Positions 47,956 to 56,572 of a stretch of 64,000 nt of DNA are shown here, one piece after another. The notes beneath the pieces are model-generated. The model did not search any database, was not told where the DNA came from, and saw nothing but the letters and a program-made list of their open reading frames with translations. Source of the stretch: Candidatus Moraniibacteriota bacterium (GTDB lineage Bacteria; Patescibacteriota; Minisyncoccia; Moranbacterales; DUUL01); the NCBI GenBank assembly GCA_041583775.1, contig JBFHFF010000004.1:66428-130427 (forward strand), read 5' to 3'. Made by a program: the position numbers and the translations under genes. How positions within the stretch are numbered: position 1 is the first letter of the stretch; every line of letters starts with the position of its first letter.

Positions 47956-49233
47956 TCATTGTTTTATCATCTTATTTAGCTCACCTATCCTAAAGCTTTT
48001 TAGATTTCCCAAAGAATCTTCACTTACTATTATATCAAAATGAAACTCAGTTTTTCCCAGAACCTGGCCCTCTTTAGCTCCCCCGATTATCACTGAAAGC
48101 TCTTGTCCTTTAAATTTATTTTCATATTCATTCTCCAATTCCTTTGAAATTTGTCTGAGTTTTTTTGCTCTTGTTTTTTTAGTCTCTTTTTTGATTTGAT
48201 CTTTCATTCTAGCTGCTGGCGTTTTTTCGTGAGCTGAAAATTGAAAAACATGGGCATTGCTAAAGCCAATTTCTAGACACAGTTGAACTGTTTGCTCAAA
48301 ATCTTCTTCCGTTTCTCCTGGAAATCCAACAATCACATCGGTTGTTATTGCTATATTCGGCATCAATTCACGAGCTTTTTTAACTCTTTTTCTAAAATAA
48401 TTCCTTGTATATGGCCGATTCATCGCACTTAGAATCTTATCACTCCCTGATTGCAATGGAAAATGCAAATGTCGACAAATTTTACTACTTTTCGCCATAA
48501 GCTCCAAAAGTTTGTCGTCAACATCAACGACCTCAATTGAACTGAGCCTCACTCTTCCCAATTCTTTTATTTTTATAATTTCTTCCAGCAAATCGCCAAG
48601 ATTACAAGTTGCAGAGTTCTTTTCTTTTCCATAAAGTCCAAGGTGAATTCCACACAAGACAACCTCTCGATAACCTGCCTCTATGGCTGCTCTAATTTCC
48701 TCCAAGACCTCTTCTCTTGGCCTGGAGGATAATTTGCCCCTGGAATAAGGAATGATGCAGTAGGAACAAAACTGTTCGCATCCATCTTGAATTTTCAAAA
48801 AATAACGAGACCTCTCCCCCTCTCCCGGTGGAACGATTTTCAAGCTACCTAGTTTTTCACATTCATTGTTCAGTTGAGTATTTTTCAGATTAACAAAAAA
48901 TTTTTTAATTTCAGCTACCAATTTTTTATGATCACCAACTTCCCAAATCAAATCTGCTTTTATTTTTTTCATTTCCTCAGGATATATTTTTGCCCAACAT
49001 CCCAAAAGCACTGTTTTGGCATTTGGGTTTTCCCTTCCTATCGCAGCAAACATCCTTCGCCCTTTTGCGATTGAAGTCTTTGTAACGGCGCAAGAATTAA
49101 CAATCGCAAGCCCAACCTCTTCTGAGTCTTCAAAGGAATGTTCAAAACCAGCGTCTATAAGTAATTTTCTTAGTGCAAGGGAATCGTATTGATTGACTTT
49201 ACAACCCAAAGTTTTTATAATAAATTTTTTCAC
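47956..49233 (-). CDS. MiaB-family radical-SAM methylthiotransferase (MtaB/RimO-like)
   Basis: N-terminal MTTase domain, CEQFCSYC radical-SAM cluster motif, C-terminal TRAM-like region. Confidence 0.8.
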   Translation of the reverse strand: MKKFIIKTLGCKVNQYDSLALRKLLIDAGFEHSFEDSEEVGLAIVNSCAVTKTSIAKGRRMFAAIGRENPNAKTVLLGCWAKIYPEEMKKIKADLIWEVGDHKKLVAEIKKFFVNLKNTQLNNECEKLGSLKIVPPGEGERSRYFLKIQDGCEQFCSYCIIPYSRGKLSSRPREEVLEEIRAAIEAGYREVVLCGIHLGLYGKEKNSATCNLGDLLEEIIKIKELGRVRLSSIEVVDVDDKLLELMAKSSKICRHLHFPLQSGSDKILSAMNRPYTRNYFRKRVKKARELMPNIAITTDVIVGFPGETEEDFEQTVQLCLEIGFSNAHVFQFSAHEKTPAARMKDQIKKETKKTRAKKLRQISKELENEYENKFKGQELSVIIGGAKEGQVLGKTEFHFDIIVSEDSLGNLKSFRIGELNKMIKQ

Positions 49234-49559
49234 AAAACTAAAGTTTAAATTTAATAACTTAGAGTCTAACCCGAAAATGATTTCTTTTCAACAAAATCCT
49301 TGTGTATCTTAAAAGGTACCTTTTAAGGGAAGGGGGTGGGAAATCTGTCTTTATTTGTCATCCTCAGCTTGACTGGGGATCTATTAGGCTCTACACAGCA
49401 ATTTTTAACACAAACTATCTCAGTTTGGCTTCAAAGTAATCTTTTTGTTTATTGTTCTGTATTTTCTGTCTCTCAATCTAATGGATTCCCGACTCCTCGG
49501 GAATGACAATCTTCCTCATCTAATTGTTGTGTTGAGTTTTTTTATTGAAAATTCACACT

Positions 49560-50158
49560 TTATTTCTCAATCACAATAAAATCCCCTTCTTCTAGCGCAT
49601 GAATGGGAAGTGATTTGTCTCCATATTCCTCCAACTCTTTTTTTGCATTTTCCCAATCAATTGGTCCTCTTGGGTCATTATTGCCATAGGTTCCATTGAA
49701 ATGAGGAATAAACTTAATTGGCAGAATTCTCAAACCCTCCAAACAGTCTCTCCAATCACAAGTCCATGAAAAAGTGGTTAGAATACTCGAACCAGCAGAG
49801 CTCGTCGCCACGACTTTTCCTTCAAAAATCTTTTCTAAATCAAATTGATCAAACCAAAATCGCAACACAAATAGTCATCCCCTCCTTGGATAATAATAAT
49901 ATCGTTTTTTTCTGCTTGTTTTTCGAATGTTACTGGAAATGCTAAATCAAAGACTAAGCTATCTGCTTTTCCTGTCAGAGAAGCAAATCTTTCACTATAA
50001 GCTTCAAACCTCGTCTCCCAGCTTTCTCGAGGCTGTGCAAAAAAACAATAGAGAATTCTAATTTCCCCTTCAAAACCAACAAGGATTTCATTCAAAAAAG
50101 CCAACTCCTTCTCGGGATATTTTTTAGCGCCACCCGAATTTAAGATATATTTTGTCAT
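49560..50158 (-). pseudogene. S51 (peptidase E / cyanophycinase-like) peptidase gene split by a single frameshift
   Basis: Upstream ORF ends ...IIIQGGDDYLCCDFGLINLI*; the +1 frame continues LRFWFDQFDLEKIFEGKVVATSSAGS (the S51 SAG nucleophile region) from a GTG. Confidence 0.55.
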
Positions 50159-50210
50159 TTGTATTATAACTATAAATTATAGATGAATTTATTTTAACAA
50201 GGTTATATAG

Positions 50211-50250
50211 AAAAACAAAAAATCCATCGCATATGCGAGGGATTTTTTTA
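50211..50250. terminator. bidirectional intrinsic terminator at the edge of repeat copy 1
   Basis: A-run, atccatcgcatatgcgagggat imperfect palindrome, T7. Confidence 0.55.
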
Positions 50251-50463
50251 TGTGGACCCTAGTAACTTTTCTTGGAACACCTTCTTAAATACCATTGTTG
50301 AGTGGCAACCTACCATCCAAAGGATTAAACAAGGCTTTGTTTAATCGCTTATATAAAGAATTCTGTGCTATATAACATATACACAATAGGATAATGGAAC
50401 ATCTATACGTACAAGGCATTAAAATATGAAGAGATTTCAATAAATAGAAGGTGGTATTTTGAA
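50222..50463. repeat. copy 1 of a ~245-bp diverged direct repeat (att-like element)
   Basis: About 88% identical to 51831..52075 by manual alignment; starts with tatgtggaccctag, which matches the tRNA-Ala 3' end. Confidence 0.8.
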
Positions 50464-50531
50464 AAAAGCGAATGTTCAGGGGGCATCCAAAAAACAATCT
50501 TTATTTAGATCATTTTAAAGGACGCGCACTT

Positions 50532-51101
50532 CTATAAGCCATTTCTTACAAAAGAAAACAGCTCATCTACTGTCTTCTTTTCTATGAACTTACCATACGC
50601 TCCGTACTTATTATTGAATTCTACGAAAAGTTCTTTATAGTTTTTAGAAAAATCTGGAGAAGTTAAATCAGGCCCTTGATCTAAATTTTGAAACATAAAT
50701 TTTCTCATTCTCACAAGACCAGTATATTGCTTCTTTTCATTCTCATTAAAAAGAGTATCAATTAAATAGATTTCATAAGCAACATAAAAAGTAGCTAGAT
50801 TGCAAACGACTTGGTCTGAATTTAAAATATTCAAACCTTTTTTAAAAATCTCGTCCTCTTCTTCGATTAATCTTCTTTTTATGTCATCATCTTCAATTCC
50901 TTCTAAATCTTTTTCAAAATCATATGTTAAGTTAGGGATTGCCCAATTTAAAGCTCGTGCTAGCAGTTGCAACCCAAATTCATCATTCTCTAATTTCTCT
51001 TCTTCTATAAATTTATCAGCGACTCCCATAACTATAGCATCGTGAATGAGATTATTCGCTTTTAAGGCATTTTTAAGCCTATTTTTCTTTAGCCAAAACA
51101 T
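50532..51101 (-). CDS. hypothetical protein (189 aa)
   Basis: ORF between the two repeat copies; no motif I recognise. Confidence 0.5.
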   Translation of the reverse strand: MFWLKKNRLKNALKANNLIHDAIVMGVADKFIEEEKLENDEFGLQLLARALNWAIPNLTYDFEKDLEGIEDDDIKRRLIEEEDEIFKKGLNILNSDQVVCNLATFYVAYEIYLIDTLFNENEKKQYTGLVRMRKFMFQNLDQGPDLTSPDFSKNYKELFVEFNNKYGAYGKFIEKKTVDELFSFVRNGL

Positions 51102-51274
51102 ACTTTTAGTTATTACTGCTTAATATTTTCACCTTCATTTTTTCTCTTTTTCCAAAATTATTGTGAATTCTACATTTTTCCCGTATCTTTTATCTCAAAT
51201 TTACGAGAGGGTTCAAAGCAGGGGCCATTGAACCCACTATAAAACAAAACACCAGACGTTCATTTTTCGATTCC

Positions 51275-51583
51275 CTATCTTAGATGATTTATAGAATCCT
51301 CTATTTCATTAAGCATACTCCTAGTTTCGAAGTCATTATAATCTTTTTTATCTTGTATGGACTTCAACTTATCAGTCAATTCAAAATTTTCATTCAAACT
51401 TTTGATAAGATTGTTCTTTTGAAAGACTTTACTATGATAATACGCCACCAATCCCAACATCCCATAATATGGCAAAGCAACCGCCCAAACAGAGTCAAAT
51501 TCAACAACTGCAAAATAAATCAAAACGGGAACAACAAAAAGAACAACTAAAAAGAATGAATTCCATAAATTCCCTTTTGACAT
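51275..51583 (-). CDS. small two-TM membrane protein with a charged C-terminal tail (holin-like topology)
   Basis: Two hydrophobic helices followed by a K/D/E-rich tail. Confidence 0.5.
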   Translation of the reverse strand: MSKGNLWNSFFLVVLFVVPVLIYFAVVEFDSVWAVALPYYGMLGLVAYYHSKVFQKNNLIKSLNENFELTDKLKSIQDKKDYNDFETRSMLNEIEDSINHLR

Positions 51584-51830
51584 AATAAATCAATTTAACA
51601 ATTAAATAATTAATTCACAAGTTCAACTGCTTCTGCCTTAAACCCTTAAACACTCCATCTCCTTAACATCACCCTCATCTGCCACGTAGCAACGTTTATT
51701 CTATATCAACCCAAAACTCGCTACATTTAAAGTTTACCACCTAAGACTAAATAAGAAAACCTCAGTAAAGCAATATTTTTTCCAATACCCCCTTGCATTC
51801 AAATCCACAACAAACTATTCGTAAACAAAA

Positions 51831-52075
51831 GAATCCCTCGCTGATGCGAAAGATTCCTTTTTGTGTGGACCATAAAGACTTTTATTGTAACACCTTTTTA
51901 AATACCATTATTGAGTGGCAACCTACTGTCAAAAGGGTTAAACAAAGCTTTATTTAATAGCTTATATAAAGAATTCTGTGCTATATAACATACACGCAAT
52001 AAGATAATGGAACATTTATACGTATAATGCGTTAAAATATGAAGAGATTTCAATAAATAGAAGGTGGTATATTGA
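51831..52075. repeat. copy 2 of the ~245-bp direct repeat, with an adjacent terminator hairpin at 51831..51863
   Basis: Manual alignment to copy 1; gaatc...gattc hairpin plus T-run; tgtggaccataaag is a degenerate copy of the tRNA-Ala 3' end. Confidence 0.8.
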
Positions 52076-52235
52076 ACGATGTCCGAACTTTTTTTATTGA
52101 AAAGGAGAAATGTACCGACTCTTTTGCTGTGGCAAATTTAGCTTATTAAAGATATTTAGTTATTTTTGAATATGCCTCATACTCTCATTGCTAGTAAAAA
52201 GCTTGATGAAAGAAGGGCATATCAAAAAATGAAGG

Positions 52236-53204
52236 TTAGTAAGAAAAACTTTCAAAACTTTTTATATCATTTCTTAAATTAGTTTTTCTTGTGATAGCTC
52301 CGTCACTTGCTCTTTCAATAATATTTCCTACAGAAAACTTTCCTAGTTTATTTTTTGTGTAAAGGTTTTTTGCAAAATACAACTCTGCTTCTGGACTCCT
52401 ACCAAAATTATTCGCATTTATAATATGTGTCTCGCAATAAATGATAGCGCTTACTTCTTTAAGCTGATTATTGCAAAAATAATTTGTTGGTATTCGAACT
52501 TTTCTAGCATCTTTTTCAATTTCTATATGTTCCCTAAGCTCATAACCCATCCCATCTGAGGAGCCTCCTCTCATCGGGAATACATCGTTTCCCCTCCCAT
52601 AAACTGTTGCTTCTATTGCACGGCCTCTAAATAGAGTTTCGGTATTATTTCCATTAATAGCGATTAAAAATGGTTCACATTCACTACATACATTACCCAA
52701 ATATTTTTCCCTATACTTTTTGTATTTCTTTGTCAGGGCATTGCTTATCCTTGCTATTCGCGGATCAAGAGCTTTGTAAATATCGCCACTTTTTGGGCTG
52801 TCATCAACTTCCTTATTTTTTCCAGGTGTAGTTATAATAGCTTCAATCCAAATATTTCTTCCATTCACTCTTACCTGTATATCAGGTCCCTTTCCATTGT
52901 TTGGAACCAATTCATAGCCATTATCCATAAGAACTGTTGCTAAATACATTTGCCAAGAAAATGCGTTAAATCCTCTGTTCTTTCTCGAGCGTAGATTCTT
53001 GAGAAAGTTTGGCTCGGCATATTTTTCATATCTCCCCCATAAAGACTCAAGCCATTTTTTCGTCTCTTCCCTACCCTTTCCACAACAAGTAATTATATAA
53101 GTAGAATCAAGACTTGGATTGTCCTTAATGCATTTTTTCAGCTCATCATCAGATGTAATCTGAGCAAAATCGTGAATAAATATTTTTTCGTGTCTACTTT
53201 TCAT
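52236..53204 (-). CDS. hypothetical protein (322 aa), possibly with a PD-(D/E)xK-like nuclease core
   Basis: GPDIQVRVNGRNIWIEAI resembles a PD...E motif, but the Lys is not evident; last gene of a three-gene operon; its start overlaps the upstream stop (ATGA). Confidence 0.5.
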   Translation of the reverse strand: MKSRHEKIFIHDFAQITSDDELKKCIKDNPSLDSTYIITCCGKGREETKKWLESLWGRYEKYAEPNFLKNLRSRKNRGFNAFSWQMYLATVLMDNGYELVPNNGKGPDIQVRVNGRNIWIEAIITTPGKNKEVDDSPKSGDIYKALDPRIARISNALTKKYKKYREKYLGNVCSECEPFLIAINGNNTETLFRGRAIEATVYGRGNDVFPMRGGSSDGMGYELREHIEIEKDARKVRIPTNYFCNNQLKEVSAIIYCETHIINANNFGRSPEAELYFAKNLYTKNKLGKFSVGNIIERASDGAITRKTNLRNDIKSFESFSY

Positions 53205-53581
53205 TGTTTTTTATTAATATTAGCAATAAATTCCTCCAAGACATCTAGCACGGATAAAAATTCTCTTACTCTGCTTAGCTTGTTTATATTCTTCTTGTAT
53301 TCTAATTCATATCTAGCGAGTATAACTCTGTACTCGAAGATATCACTTTCCGAAGGAAATGCAGAAGGAAACATTCTGTAAACGAATTTTAGTAATCTTT
53401 CATTTTCTTCTATTCCCATTTTATGCTTATTCTCATATTCTTTTTCAACAGAATTTTCTTCCCAACCAACAGTCATTCTCCCCATTCCTCTAAAAAAATT
53501 TTTAAAATTTATAAGCTCATTAATTTTATTTTCAGAACTTTCGAAATAAGGGAAAAAAGGAATGTAATCATACCTGACCAA
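53201..53581 (-). CDS. hypothetical protein (126 aa; alternative start at 53485)
   Basis: The long form overlaps the upstream gene by 73 nt; the ATGA overlap with the downstream gene implies translational coupling. Confidence 0.5.
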   Translation of the reverse strand: MVRYDYIPFFPYFESSENKINELINFKNFFRGMGRMTVGWEENSVEKEYENKHKMGIEENERLLKFVYRMFPSAFPSESDIFEYRVILARYELEYKKNINKLSRVREFLSVLDVLEEFIANINKKQ

Positions 53582-54756
53582 GAAATCGGTTCCGTATCTG
53601 AGAACAAGCCATAGAATATTTTACTTAATTTTGGATCATATCCTACATTTCCTGAAATATTGTCCGATATTTTCTGCTCGGACCAAAAAATTACTTCTCT
53701 TAAGGAAACAAATGGTATTCTTCTCTTAGACTCCAAATTTTTAGCTTTTATTTTCCATTCCTTTGGATATGCTTTCCAAAACATCCACTCACTACTTATC
53801 TTATCTGAATTTGAAAACAAAATAGAGAGAAAAGAAATGAAAAAATTTTCAATATATTCAATATCATCAGAGTGTTTATCAAGATGAATTTTTACCAACC
53901 GCAAATATCGTCCATAACTTTTATCAAGAGATTGGATTTCTATATATTCCAGTACGGGATAAATTTCATAATCAAATGGAAACCATTTTTCGCTTTCCCC
54001 ATACCTTTCGGCTTTATAATACCATTCAAGTATTTCTTCTAAAGGAGACTTTTTTCCTGAATATATCAAGAAATCCTTATCTCTGTTCTCAATATTTCTA
54101 GAAAAATTGCCAAGTAAACTATTCAGAAGAGGTGTACCCTCTCTTTTATCAATCAAAATATTTATATTTTTTGAAAATATCTCAAAAAATTCCAACTCGC
54201 TATTTCTGTCATTTTCTTTAACTTTCCATACCGAAGTCCAAGCAGAAACATATTCTCTATCCTCTCTTATTTTTTTCAGAAATCCGTACCTATGATAATA
54301 TGGATCTTTTATCCAAATAATAAAATCGAGAATTATTTTAATTAATATACCTATTCCAACTAGCCAAATTACAAGTAATACATTTCTCATAACAAAACCA
54401 CTACCAAACCAAAAAAATGATGGCAAATATGACAACAAAAGAGTTATCAATATCAACCTGACATCAAATACTCTGTTTATAATTACTATCAAATCTAATT
54501 CTGAATAGTTTATATTTTCATTGTTTCTCTTAGTTCTAAAATAATCAGACAGCACCGCTATGGCCAAAGGAATCAATATTGTAAAGAGGGCTATGTTCAC
54601 ATTATGAAAATAATTTCCTAATTCCATAACTTGATTAGCAGTGTTGATACTTAAATATAAAAAAATAAACAAGAATATCACTTCTAAAATAAAAAATATC
54701 ACTTCTTTTTGGGAAAGTTTTTTTTGAAATGCTTTTCTCAACATTTTGTTTAACAT
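53509..54756 (-). CDS. hypothetical membrane protein (415 aa; 4 N-terminal TM helices plus a ~270-aa cytoplasmic domain)
   Basis: Hydrophobic N-terminus; no motif I recognise. Confidence 0.55.
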   Translation of the reverse strand: MLNKMLRKAFQKKLSQKEVIFFILEVIFLFIFLYLSINTANQVMELGNYFHNVNIALFTILIPLAIAVLSDYFRTKRNNENINYSELDLIVIINRVFDVRLILITLLLSYLPSFFWFGSGFVMRNVLLVIWLVGIGILIKIILDFIIWIKDPYYHRYGFLKKIREDREYVSAWTSVWKVKENDRNSELEFFEIFSKNINILIDKREGTPLLNSLLGNFSRNIENRDKDFLIYSGKKSPLEEILEWYYKAERYGESEKWFPFDYEIYPVLEYIEIQSLDKSYGRYLRLVKIHLDKHSDDIEYIENFFISFLSILFSNSDKISSEWMFWKAYPKEWKIKAKNLESKRRIPFVSLREVIFWSEQKISDNISGNVGYDPKLSKIFYGLFSDTEPISWSGMITFLFSLISKVLKIKLMSL

Positions 54757-55199
54757 AACAAATATTTCTTAATTTAGTTAGGATATTTATTTTAAACAGT
54801 TTTCCATAATAACTGAATCTAGGGGGAAAATCAATAATTTATATACAAAAAATACTTGCTAATAAACTTTTAAAAATACGAAAGATATGGTGTGTGGTGT
54901 TAGAATATTTTATTTTATAATTCCAGATTCAATTTACTTGCAGTTATTTTAAGAATCCTTCTTTCTCTGTTTCGAATTATTTCTTTGTCTCTTATTTTCT
55001 CTTTGATATTTTCATATCGTGTGGGATGAAAATACATCGATTAGTCCTCAATTTTTCAGCGCCTACTCGTCTTAAGGAATATTGCAACACAACATCAGGG
55101 TTTCCTGAGTGCCAACCTAAGGCACGCTTAATTACGTTAAAGCCATCTAAATCTTTTCTTATATTAAAACTTTTAATTAGGGACCCACCTCCTTGATGA

Positions 55200-55682
55200 T
55201 GCATAAATATTAACTTTCCAGATACCATAGAAAAATGGAATGCTACTGCAAGGGAGTTAGCACTAAAAGAAAAAGAAGTTGAAAATTACATCGACCTGCT
55301 GGCAAAAACCGCCAGTGATGTTGTTAGAAAGAAATATGAGCTTAGAGTCGAAGCCCTTGAGGAAGAGATTTCGGCATTAAAAAAACAGCCCTCGGTTGCT
55401 AAGCACCTGAACTGTGAAGACGCTATTTCAGAAGTATTGCATTTTCTTGGAACACCTGCTGATTATTGGCAAAAAACCAATCTGGAAGGCAAATTTATGG
55501 TACACAACCTTATATTCACAGAGAATCCAATCTTTGACTTGCAAAATGGATTTGGAACACCTAAAACTTCCCTTCCCTTCGCAATAAAAGACGCCATTCA
55601 CAATGACGTCTCTTCTATGGTGGACCCTAGGGGATTCGAACTCCTGACCTCCTCAGTGCAAATGAGGCGCTCTACCAACTGA
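55200..55682 (+). pseudogene. start-less remnant of a larger gene, tentatively a recombinase C-terminal coiled-coil tail, reading into tRNA-Ala
   Basis: Open frame begins right after a TGA at 55197-55199 with no ATG; heptad-like ALKEKEVENYIDLL...ELRVEALEEEISALKK; runs antisense across the tRNA-Ala 3' end. Confidence 0.3.
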
Positions 55683-55693
55683 GCTAAGGGCCC
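55618..55693 (-). tRNA. tRNA-Ala (TGC) with encoded CCA
   Basis: Cloverleaf by eye; anticodon loop TTTGCAC; G3-U70 alanine identity pair; 3' ...AGGGTCC-A-CCA. Confidence 0.85.
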
Positions 55694-55858
55694 ATATTAA
55701 ACTAATTTTAAATTTCTAATTTTTAAGTTTGAATGAATTTTTTAATTAATCAATTTCAAATTTAAAAACTAAAACTTACCTGGTTTTGCTATTCTTCATT
55801 AATAAATTAGAATTTGATTCGAAATTCACAATTCTTAATTCAAAATTATTTGAAAACG

Positions 55859-55935
55859 CTGTGGGCAATCCAGGAATTGAACCTGGGACCTCGTCATTAT
55901 CAGTGACGCGCTCTAACCATCTGAGCTAATCGCCC
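55859..55935 (-). tRNA. tRNA-Ile (GAT)
   Basis: Cloverleaf by eye; anticodon loop CTGATAA. Confidence 0.8.
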
Positions 55936-56248
55936 TTTATTTTTTTCAAAAATTTTCGTCACGATTAAATCACAACAGAAGTAATTATAACAAAAAAAAT
56001 AATATTGTCCAGTGTTTGAATAGAAAAACTCCAGAATATTGTTTTTAAGCTTTTATATAGCGTTTTTTGAATCTCAATAAACAAACTTTTTTCAACACAA
56101 AGGACAACAACAAATTCAAATCTCTCCCCTATTGCCAATTTAAGAATATTGTGTTAATCTAGGTTTTGTCTAAGAAAAAGGCACCCTAAAGCCAAGAAAT
56201 GGCCTTATTATTATTGTGCAGAATTTAAAATAATTATATTATTGAAAT

Positions 56249-56572
56249 ATGAAAAAAGGCATCCACCCAAAATACATCGAGGAAGCAACAATTAAATGTT
56301 CTTGCGGAAATGTTATCACAACTGGTTCGACATTAGAAAAAAAAGACATTGAAATTTGTAGCGCTTGTCATCCTTTTTATACCGGAAAGAAGAAACTCGT
56401 AGACTCAACCGGACGAGTTGATAGATTCAAACAAAGAATGGAAAAATTCTCTGCAATTGAAAAGGAAAAAGAAGAAGCAAAAAAGGCTGCTGCAAAGAAA
56501 GCGAAATCAACAACAAAGAAAGATGTTAAAAAAGTAGAAGCAAAAACTACTAAAGAAGCAGCAAAAAAATAA
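56249..56572 (+). CDS. rpmE: 50S ribosomal protein L31 with Lys/Ala-rich C-terminal extension
   Basis: MKKGIHPKY...CSCG...[10 protein letters not shown] zinc-ribbon L31 core. Confidence 0.9.

Follow-up and report, generated by a model that had tools for sequence, protein, structure and literature searches.

The 64,000-nucleotide (nt) stretch analyzed here, referred to as the window, comes from a Candidatus Moraniibacteriota bacterium (assembly GCA_041583775.1, contig JBFHFF010000004.1, positions 66,428 to 130,427 of the forward strand). Three co-directional open reading frames (ORFs) between window positions 52236 and 54756 had previously been described, from a reading of the sequence alone, as a three-gene operon and a candidate novel system of the anti-phage type. 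We report that the locus consists of two genes and not three. The upstream and middle ORFs, here referred to as A and B, are the two halves of one membrane protein gene, AB, and the third, gene C, encodes a homologue of the phage defense proteins PD-T7-5 and PD-T7-1. AB and C recur as a pair with overlapping stop and start codons, and both families sit in defense neighborhoods. The reading we favor, at about even confidence, is that of a two-gene cassette of the phage defense type, made up of a membrane partner, AB, and a PD-T7-5-like nuclease effector, C, with the membrane protein gene disrupted in this genome.

All three ORFs are present as the sequence-only reading gave them (Table 1), as is the ATGA overlap between the last two. 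A and B do overlap by 73 nt, and the alternative ATG at 53485 exists, leaving a gap of 23 nt and not the 24 nt claimed. The overlap had been taken as translational coupling; it is instead the footprint of a 1-nt frame change inside one gene. Addition of one T to the T6 run gives a single ORF of 518 amino acids (aa), which is 61% identical (314/519) to a 516-aa relative and colinear with it through the join. This relative is a single ORF that precedes a C relative of 77% identity, and it reads …ISWANIWMFLFFPYTENK…GGIGRMSVGW…; the 415-aa frame of the window terminates as …ISWSGMITFLF|SLIS…, and the 126-aa frame carries on as …IPFFPYFESSENK…RGMGRMTVGW…. The residues FLFFPY are common to the window and the relative across the join, with a 3-residue indel directly after them. 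The in-frame form is TTC CTT TTT TTC CCT (F L F F P), the window sequence being one T short, and three close relatives read the FLFFPY codons in frame. In a collection of 5.8 billion proteins, AB relatives were single proteins in 17/17 cases (477 to 540 aa), and the hidden Markov model of the family is matched by both the A and the B halves. A and B are therefore one gene. The 126-aa "small partner" is a frameshift artifact, and the proposed three-gene operon does not stand, since every relative has a single gene in place of A and B and only AB and C recur together.

The sequence-only reading could assign no motif in any of the three proteins. C, however, matches the PADLOC profiles PD-T7-5 (PDLC04110; E value of 2.5e-18, with C residues 47 to 260 on profile positions 31 to 236 of 346) and PD-T7-1 (PDLC04073; E value of 5.2e-14), and the idea of a wholly novel system has to be given up, as C belongs to a known defense family. 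PD-T7-5 and PD-T7-1 are single-gene systems that came from a functional selection for phage resistance in Escherichia coli (PMC9519451); both have been classed among the PD-(D/E)xK proteins (PMC10952713), and a resemblance to RmuC has been weakly predicted for them (PMC10270631). E. coli KE47 carries a genuine PD-T7-5 (profile positions 1 to 340 of 346; E value of 1e-101), to which C is 26% identical over residues 45 to 256 (pairwise E value of 8e-11). Because C covers only profile positions 31 to 236, it is a distant relative with a common core and not a PD-T7-5 orthologue. Relatives of C that are embedded in restriction-modification (R-M) operons, as well as distant relatives, score similarly.

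The GPDIQV...IWIEAI segment that had been singled out in the 322-aa protein corresponds to C residues 106 to 123 and, as noted at the time, has no Lys two residues past the Glu. Residues W84, D108 (GPD), E121 (WIEA), K160, and A182-I183 are invariant across 18 superfamily sequences, including the E. coli PD-T7-5, and none of these positions varies among 36 close C homologues. P107-D108 and E121 are present, with Ile or Val two residues past E121 in place of Lys. K160, which is invariant and located on the next helix, could plausibly replace the canonical Lys, in which case the putative active site would comprise D108, E121, and K160. Judged by sequence, C is thus homologous to PD-T7-5 and PD-T7-1 and retains the invariant acidic and Lys residues. 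The earlier suggestion of a nuclease-like, PD-(D/E)xK-type protein is backed by this homology and, more weakly, by the predicted fold. The confident AlphaFold2 model of C has a predicted local distance difference test (pLDDT) score of 82 and a predicted template-modeling score of 0.84, and its weak Foldseek top matches are almost all nucleases of the restriction endonuclease fold (N.BspD6I, FokI, DdmD, Hjc, XisH, Bax1, McrC, Can1, LmuA, VRR-NUC, and HamA). Searches of C against Pfam and NCBIfam gave nothing significant. We infer from these data that C is a nuclease, with nucleic acid as its probable substrate. As a separate observation, C residue 85 (window positions 52950 to 52952) is Gln or His in the window and R-M-embedded clades (W-x-M-Y-L) and Glu in the E. 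coli PD-T7-5 and most distant members (WEMYL or WELYL); this exchange of Glu for Gln or His could bear on metal binding or activity.

AB is followed by C, the stop codon of the one overlapping the start codon of the other, in the window and at three further loci, L002, L109, and L108, where the C proteins are 77%, 76%, and 73% identical and the AB proteins 61%, 58%, and 57% identical to the window copies, respectively. The four lineages are probably Moranbacteria-like Patescibacteria, and the nearest named relatives are metagenome-assembled genomes of Moranbacteria or Parcubacteria. The flanking genes differ among the four loci, a 270-aa downstream gene being common to L002 and L109 only, and at L108 an intact large serine recombinase lies ~3.5 kb from the pair. 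Of the co-occurrence that had been proposed as a check, the recurrence of AB with C thus holds in at least three other lineages; the pairing is nevertheless not general, and the two families are largely independent, with the pairing confined to a narrow clade.

AB has four N-terminal transmembrane (TM) helices, seen as four hydrophobic segments in a hydropathy scan and in agreement with the earlier description, followed by an all-alpha cytoplasmic domain of ~365 aa. An exhaustive profile search, with clustering at 50%, recovered 569 cluster representatives of the family at an E value of ≤1e-3 and 310 at ≤1e-30, with members mostly 470 to 540 aa long. Some members are encoded by two genes, one for a TM part of ~190 aa and one for a soluble part of ~320 aa, split near profile position 205, and the TM and soluble domains can therefore be regarded as separable modules. 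Such two-gene forms, with adjacent genes, were seen at metagenomic loci L064, L071, L083, L084, L089, L093, L096, L099, and L100. The AlphaFold2 model of an AB relative is all alpha (pLDDT of 80.5). The A and B ORFs gave nothing significant in Pfam and NCBIfam, and none of 17 family members matched any PADLOC model. A Pfam match to the BrxC-helical family was weak, was limited to 3/17 members, was not reproduced in a wider set, and was discarded. AB is also not the pifB gene of the F plasmid, as tblastn at an E value of ≤1e-3 found no match in 72,556 plasmid records; a literature search for PifA and PifB returned only unrelated Wolbachia proteins. No AB relatives were found in plasmid and viral-contig collections, and no C relatives were found in the viral contigs scanned or in phage records. 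These results are neutral regarding a role in defense, and an origin of the two genes from phage was rejected on the same grounds.

Elsewhere, both families keep company with defense genes. Genes of the C family are for the most part found within type I R-M operons or as neighbors of a methylase or NACHT NTPase gene. In four different type I R-M operons, a C relative of ~50 to 58% identity is inserted between hsdS and hsdR, its start and stop codons overlapping those of these two neighbors; one of these R-M-embedded relatives lies beside a Shedu-like gene, and another C relative lies beside a Zeta toxin. The genes immediately upstream of AB relatives match PifA/KAP NTPases in 7/38 cases, PDC-S65 in 5/38, and SIR2/pAgo-associated proteins in 5/38, with other upstream matches to Mokosh, a dGTPase, and a type IIG R-M system, so that by a rough count about half of them match known or candidate defense proteins; HEPN_AbiU2 was found downstream in one case. 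The upstream neighbors of AB fall into recurrent clusters, and the downstream ones are all different. In its behavior the nuclease family resembles a modular effector that can be joined to one partner or another, and the membrane protein family, too, is found next to a variety of defense proteins. Of the anti-phage-type module that had been proposed, the defense-type neighborhoods of both families bear out the general idea; its three-gene form does not hold, and AB is disrupted here.

Two further arrangements were noticed among the distant nucleases of the C family. One nuclease gene directly follows, on the same strand and with a 28-nt gap, a gene for a NACHT NTPase, and another lies beside a divergently oriented gene for a fusion of LexA, Peptidase_S24, and an N6/N4 methyltransferase (L027:4862-7810 and L019:5340-7957, respectively). 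Both look like further uncharacterized defense modules built on the PD-T7-5 core. In the AB family, genes for PifA-like KAP NTPases (PADLOC PifA, E values down to 2e-63) are followed by an AB-family gene at a fixed spacing of ~99 nt (L043-L044, L052, L054, L059, L075, and others), which suggests an unrecognized two-gene PifA-type system in environmental bacteria.

How the frame of AB came to be broken bears on what the cassette is in this organism. We regard a genuine mutation at T6 as most likely. A Logan contig (L001, SRR29257459) is 100% identical to window positions 52041 to 55945 (3,905 nt), T6 included, and the truncated 415-aa product is on record in three contigs; these may derive from one shared sample, which limits the independent confirmation of T6. 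Both records speak against an assembly or sequencing error, by which the true genome would carry an intact 518-aa gene and a fully functional cassette. Such an error is nevertheless possible, if less likely, as the lesion is a single base within a homopolymer and the downstream frame is free of further defects over 126 codons. A second broken gene, <4 kb away, can be read in two ways: a Peptidase_S51 homologue (49560 to 50158, minus strand) is split into ORFs of 107 aa and 102 aa, and its relatives are intact and 218 aa long (L009:4445-5101). This break is compatible with local gene decay or with an indel-prone assembly and fits either; it could lend weight to an error, but the frame change is near 49860, outside any homopolymer. 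Far less probable still is that the locus holds three real genes, with a small partner of 126 or 91 aa, or that a -1 ribosomal frameshift or transcriptional slippage on T6 yields both a 415-aa and a 518-aa protein. The downstream frame is open for those 126 codons, a GAGGA motif lies ~9 nt before a second internal ATG at 53476, the last ~90 aa are separable in that some family members stop or diverge after about profile position 420 to 430, slippage of the P-site tRNA-Phe on CTT TTT T would give back the very FLFFPY of the relatives, and the frameshifted form is found in NCBI and Logan assemblies alike. Against this, all 17 of 17 close and mid-distance relatives are single proteins with the same codons in frame, and the natural splits of the AB family are at about position 205, where the TM part gives way to the soluble part, rather than at 403. 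Programmed frameshifting was rejected because it is not conserved, relatives need no shift, and the 93 nt downstream of T6 contain no stimulatory RNA structure (z score of 0.04 versus shuffled sequences); the site is also no canonical X XXY YYZ heptamer in the zero frame, and a run of six T residues is short for efficient transcriptional slippage.

With regard to function, we infer from the conserved adjacency and the neighborhoods that AB and C act together, and a possible division of labor can be outlined. AB, with its four-TM anchor and its cytoplasmic alpha-helical, solenoid-like domain, may have a sensing or regulatory role at the cell envelope or may tether C there, and C would be the effector, cleaving nucleic acid (most probably the DNA of an invader) by means of D108, E121, and the Lys of the next helix, K160. 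In this host, where an anti-phage function is presumed, the 1-nt deletion in the poly-T run would leave a truncated AB of 415 aa, possibly together with a C-terminal fragment of 91 to 94 aa. As AB is interrupted, the cassette is probably impaired here or reduced to the nuclease alone, a state that would resemble PD-T7-5 in E. coli. A number of observations weigh against this reading. AB is broken in this genome, its conserved partner elsewhere is upstream and not downstream, and C may need no partner at all, given that the E. coli PD-T7-5 is a single-gene system. Of 69 AB loci from metagenomes at which a gene was called, C was present at one, on the contig of L002 itself; none of the other AB loci L009 to L017 has C, no AB lies within 7 kb of C at any of 16 reference genome C loci, and the closest AB that lacks C (from Moranbacteria, 61% identity) is followed by an unrelated 283-aa gene. 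Any sensor role for AB is conjecture, because no consistent Pfam family or recognizable domain was found in 17 or 51 members and the model of the AB relative matched only generic alpha-solenoids or designed repeats in Foldseek. As for C, the canonical Lys of the (D/E)xK motif is missing in all superfamily members, the helix motif is WQMYL in the window clade versus WEMYL in most distant members, the C model had no Foldseek match at an E value of ≤0.001, a Pfam scan of 18 superfamily members showed no consistent family, and neither a C-family profile nor one of the wider superfamily matched any PDB sequence.

Several of these observations would be expected if AB and C were two independent single-gene defense modules that merely adjoin in a small island, with C acting alone in the manner of PD-T7-5 and AB being a separate membrane-associated component of defense or abortive infection. 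We consider this possible, with appreciably less confidence than we place in the two-gene cassette. The families are nearly always apart, the recurrent partners of AB, such as PifA-like NTPases, are upstream of it, PD-T7-5 and PD-T7-1 were isolated as single genes (PMC9519451), and C is intact here despite the broken AB. Moreover, overlapping start and stop codons also join C relatives to unrelated neighbors such as hsdS and hsdR, and an overlap is for that reason no proof of partnership by itself. What stands against independence is that adjacency, order, and overlap have been kept in four lineages in spite of AB identities of 57 to 61% and changed flanks; the 3' end of AB also shows no promoter-like signal, though the scan was uninformative, as promoter and terminator sites were no more frequent than in shuffled sequence. 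It is, by comparison, very improbable that no defense system is present and that C serves as a nuclease for housekeeping or repair, or else as an accessory subunit of a restriction enzyme, beside an unrelated membrane protein. The functions of both proteins are predicted from sequence and context, those C relatives that lie within hsd operons may be accessory subunits of the R-M system rather than defense genes in their own right, and housekeeping genes adjoin the island (L31, tRNAs, and a MiaB-like gene). However, C shares homology with genes that came out of a selection for phage resistance (PMC9519451), the families occur patchily and in varying neighborhoods, and about half of the genes upstream of AB relatives match known or candidate defense proteins. 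No hsd homologues were found in the window, and C is accordingly not an R-M subunit here. The two-gene cassette therefore remains the reading we favor. A bolder extension of it, which we put forward only tentatively, is that the AB family comprises unnamed defense-island membrane proteins that function as an interchangeable sensor or adaptor anchored in the membrane and serving different effectors or NTPases, with PifA-like KAP NTPases, SIR2 proteins, or PDC-S65 as partners and, in the clade of the window, a PD-T7-5-like nuclease; this would make AB and C a new two-component anti-phage system of Patescibacteria, the candidate phyla radiation (CPR). Few defense systems have been characterized in this group.

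Table 1. Features of the AB-C locus and its surroundings in the window
Feature	Position	Strand	Description
Upstream ORF A	53509-54756	-	415 aa
Middle ORF B	53201-53581	-	126 aa; TTG start
Gene C	52236-53204	-	322 aa, intact; PD-(D/E)xK-type nuclease homologue
Membrane protein gene AB	53201-54756	-	518 aa once the frame is restored; A and B ORFs
T6 homopolymer	53553-53558	-	Frame change site; -1 shift needed from upstream to downstream frame
ATGA overlap of AB and C	53201-53204	-	Stop/start overlap, also kept in relatives
tRNA-Ala(TGC)	55618-55693	-	Upstream of AB
tRNA-Ile(GAT)	55861-55935	-	Upstream of AB
Truncated ORF	55206-55679	+	~158 codons, no N-terminus, coiled-coil-like; 3' end runs antisense into tRNA-Ala
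254-nt direct repeat, copy 1	51823-52076	not assigned	160 nt downstream of C
254-nt direct repeat, copy 2	50213-50463	not assigned	87% identical; only two copies in the window

The surroundings of the cassette are consistent in part with the mobile-element scar that had been suggested: the tRNA genes, a truncated ORF, a 254-nt direct repeat, and the broken Peptidase_S51 gene are all present, but no integrase or recombinase was identified in the part of the window from ~46 to 60 kb. The tRNA-Ile and tRNA-Ala genes, 0.9 to 1.2 kb upstream of AB, are a possible insertion site of the island. Side-by-side tRNA-Ile(GAT) and tRNA-Ala(TGC) genes are typical of the spacers of ribosomal RNA (rRNA) operons; an Rfam scan of positions 49000 to 56400 gave no rRNA match, and no att-like repeats of a tRNA 3' end were found. 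The truncated ORF was considered as the C-terminus of a serine recombinase and rejected as such, as Pfam gave no match, the large protein collection yielded no homologue, and the ORF does not resemble the L108 recombinase. Each copy of the 254-nt repeat opens with a palindromic, terminator-like hairpin (plus strand), and the copies bracket two small genes, of 102 aa (51275 to 51583, minus strand) and 189 aa (50532 to 51101). Rfam scans of the repeats and of the whole island detected only the two tRNAs, with no match in the repeats; the repeat could mark the edge of a cassette, have arisen by duplication, or represent a conserved 3' untranslated region or small RNA. The 102-aa protein is hydrophobic in its N-terminal region and weakly matches the PADLOC "2TM effector" model (E value of 0.044), and its gene may be another small defense or toxin-like gene of the same island; searches of the small neighboring ORFs in Pfam and NCBIfam gave nothing significant. 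AB and C are present in one copy each in the window.

The interest of this locus comes mainly from the unannotated AB family and from the modular deployment of the PD-T7-5 core. To our knowledge, the PD-T7-5-type nuclease has been known only as a stand-alone E. coli defense gene of unknown mechanism. If the pairing with AB is functional, this nuclease would be wired to varied partners, namely, type I R-M systems, NACHT NTPases, methylases, and a membrane protein, and the pairing would offer a handle on how it is controlled. In that case, a large unannotated membrane protein family, often beside PifA-like NTPases and missing from current defense-finder models, would also be flagged as a defense-island component. 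There is also a lesson for annotation, in that what looked like a small gene is here the product of a frameshift.

Like PD-T7-5 and PD-T7-1, C has the homologous core domain with the residues W…PD…(W/C)IEA…K…AI(N/A), lacks the canonical Lys after the Glu, and is found patchily in defense or mobile contexts. It differs from PD-T7-5 in being only 26% identical to it, with the C-terminal ~110 profile positions unaligned, and from most PD-T7-5 and PD-T7-1 members in that the window clade has Gln or His in place of the helix Glu. PD-T7-5 stands alone, whereas C overlaps the stop codon of AB here and in three other lineages and is hsd embedded in other relatives; and PD-T7-5 was found in E. coli, whereas C, with its predicted activity, is from an uncultured Patescibacteria-like bacterium. 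Type I R-M operons can carry accessory genes between hsdS and hsdR, such as PrrC and the Campylobacter "rlo" genes, and C relatives occupy the same position with overlapping start and stop codons; in contrast to these, the window has no hsd genes, and the partner is AB. C is also unrelated in sequence to anticodon nucleases of the PrrC type, and it has no such PADLOC or Pfam match. In Kiwa (KwaA/KwaB) and Zorya (ZorAB with a nuclease), a membrane sensor is combined with a soluble effector that targets DNA. The AB-C locus is analogous in that a gene for a multi-TM protein is followed by one for a soluble effector predicted to act on DNA, but there is no sequence relationship: AB and 16 aligned relatives match no PADLOC model, including those of Kiwa and Zorya components, and the cytoplasmic domain of AB is a generic alpha-solenoid. 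The likeness to PifA-type KAP NTPase loci is that AB-family genes are often found ~100 nt downstream of genes for PifA-like KAP NTPases, although the window cassette has no KAP NTPase. Taken together, the nuclease family itself is known, and what is new here is the apparent coupling of a PD-T7-5-like nuclease to a new membrane partner.

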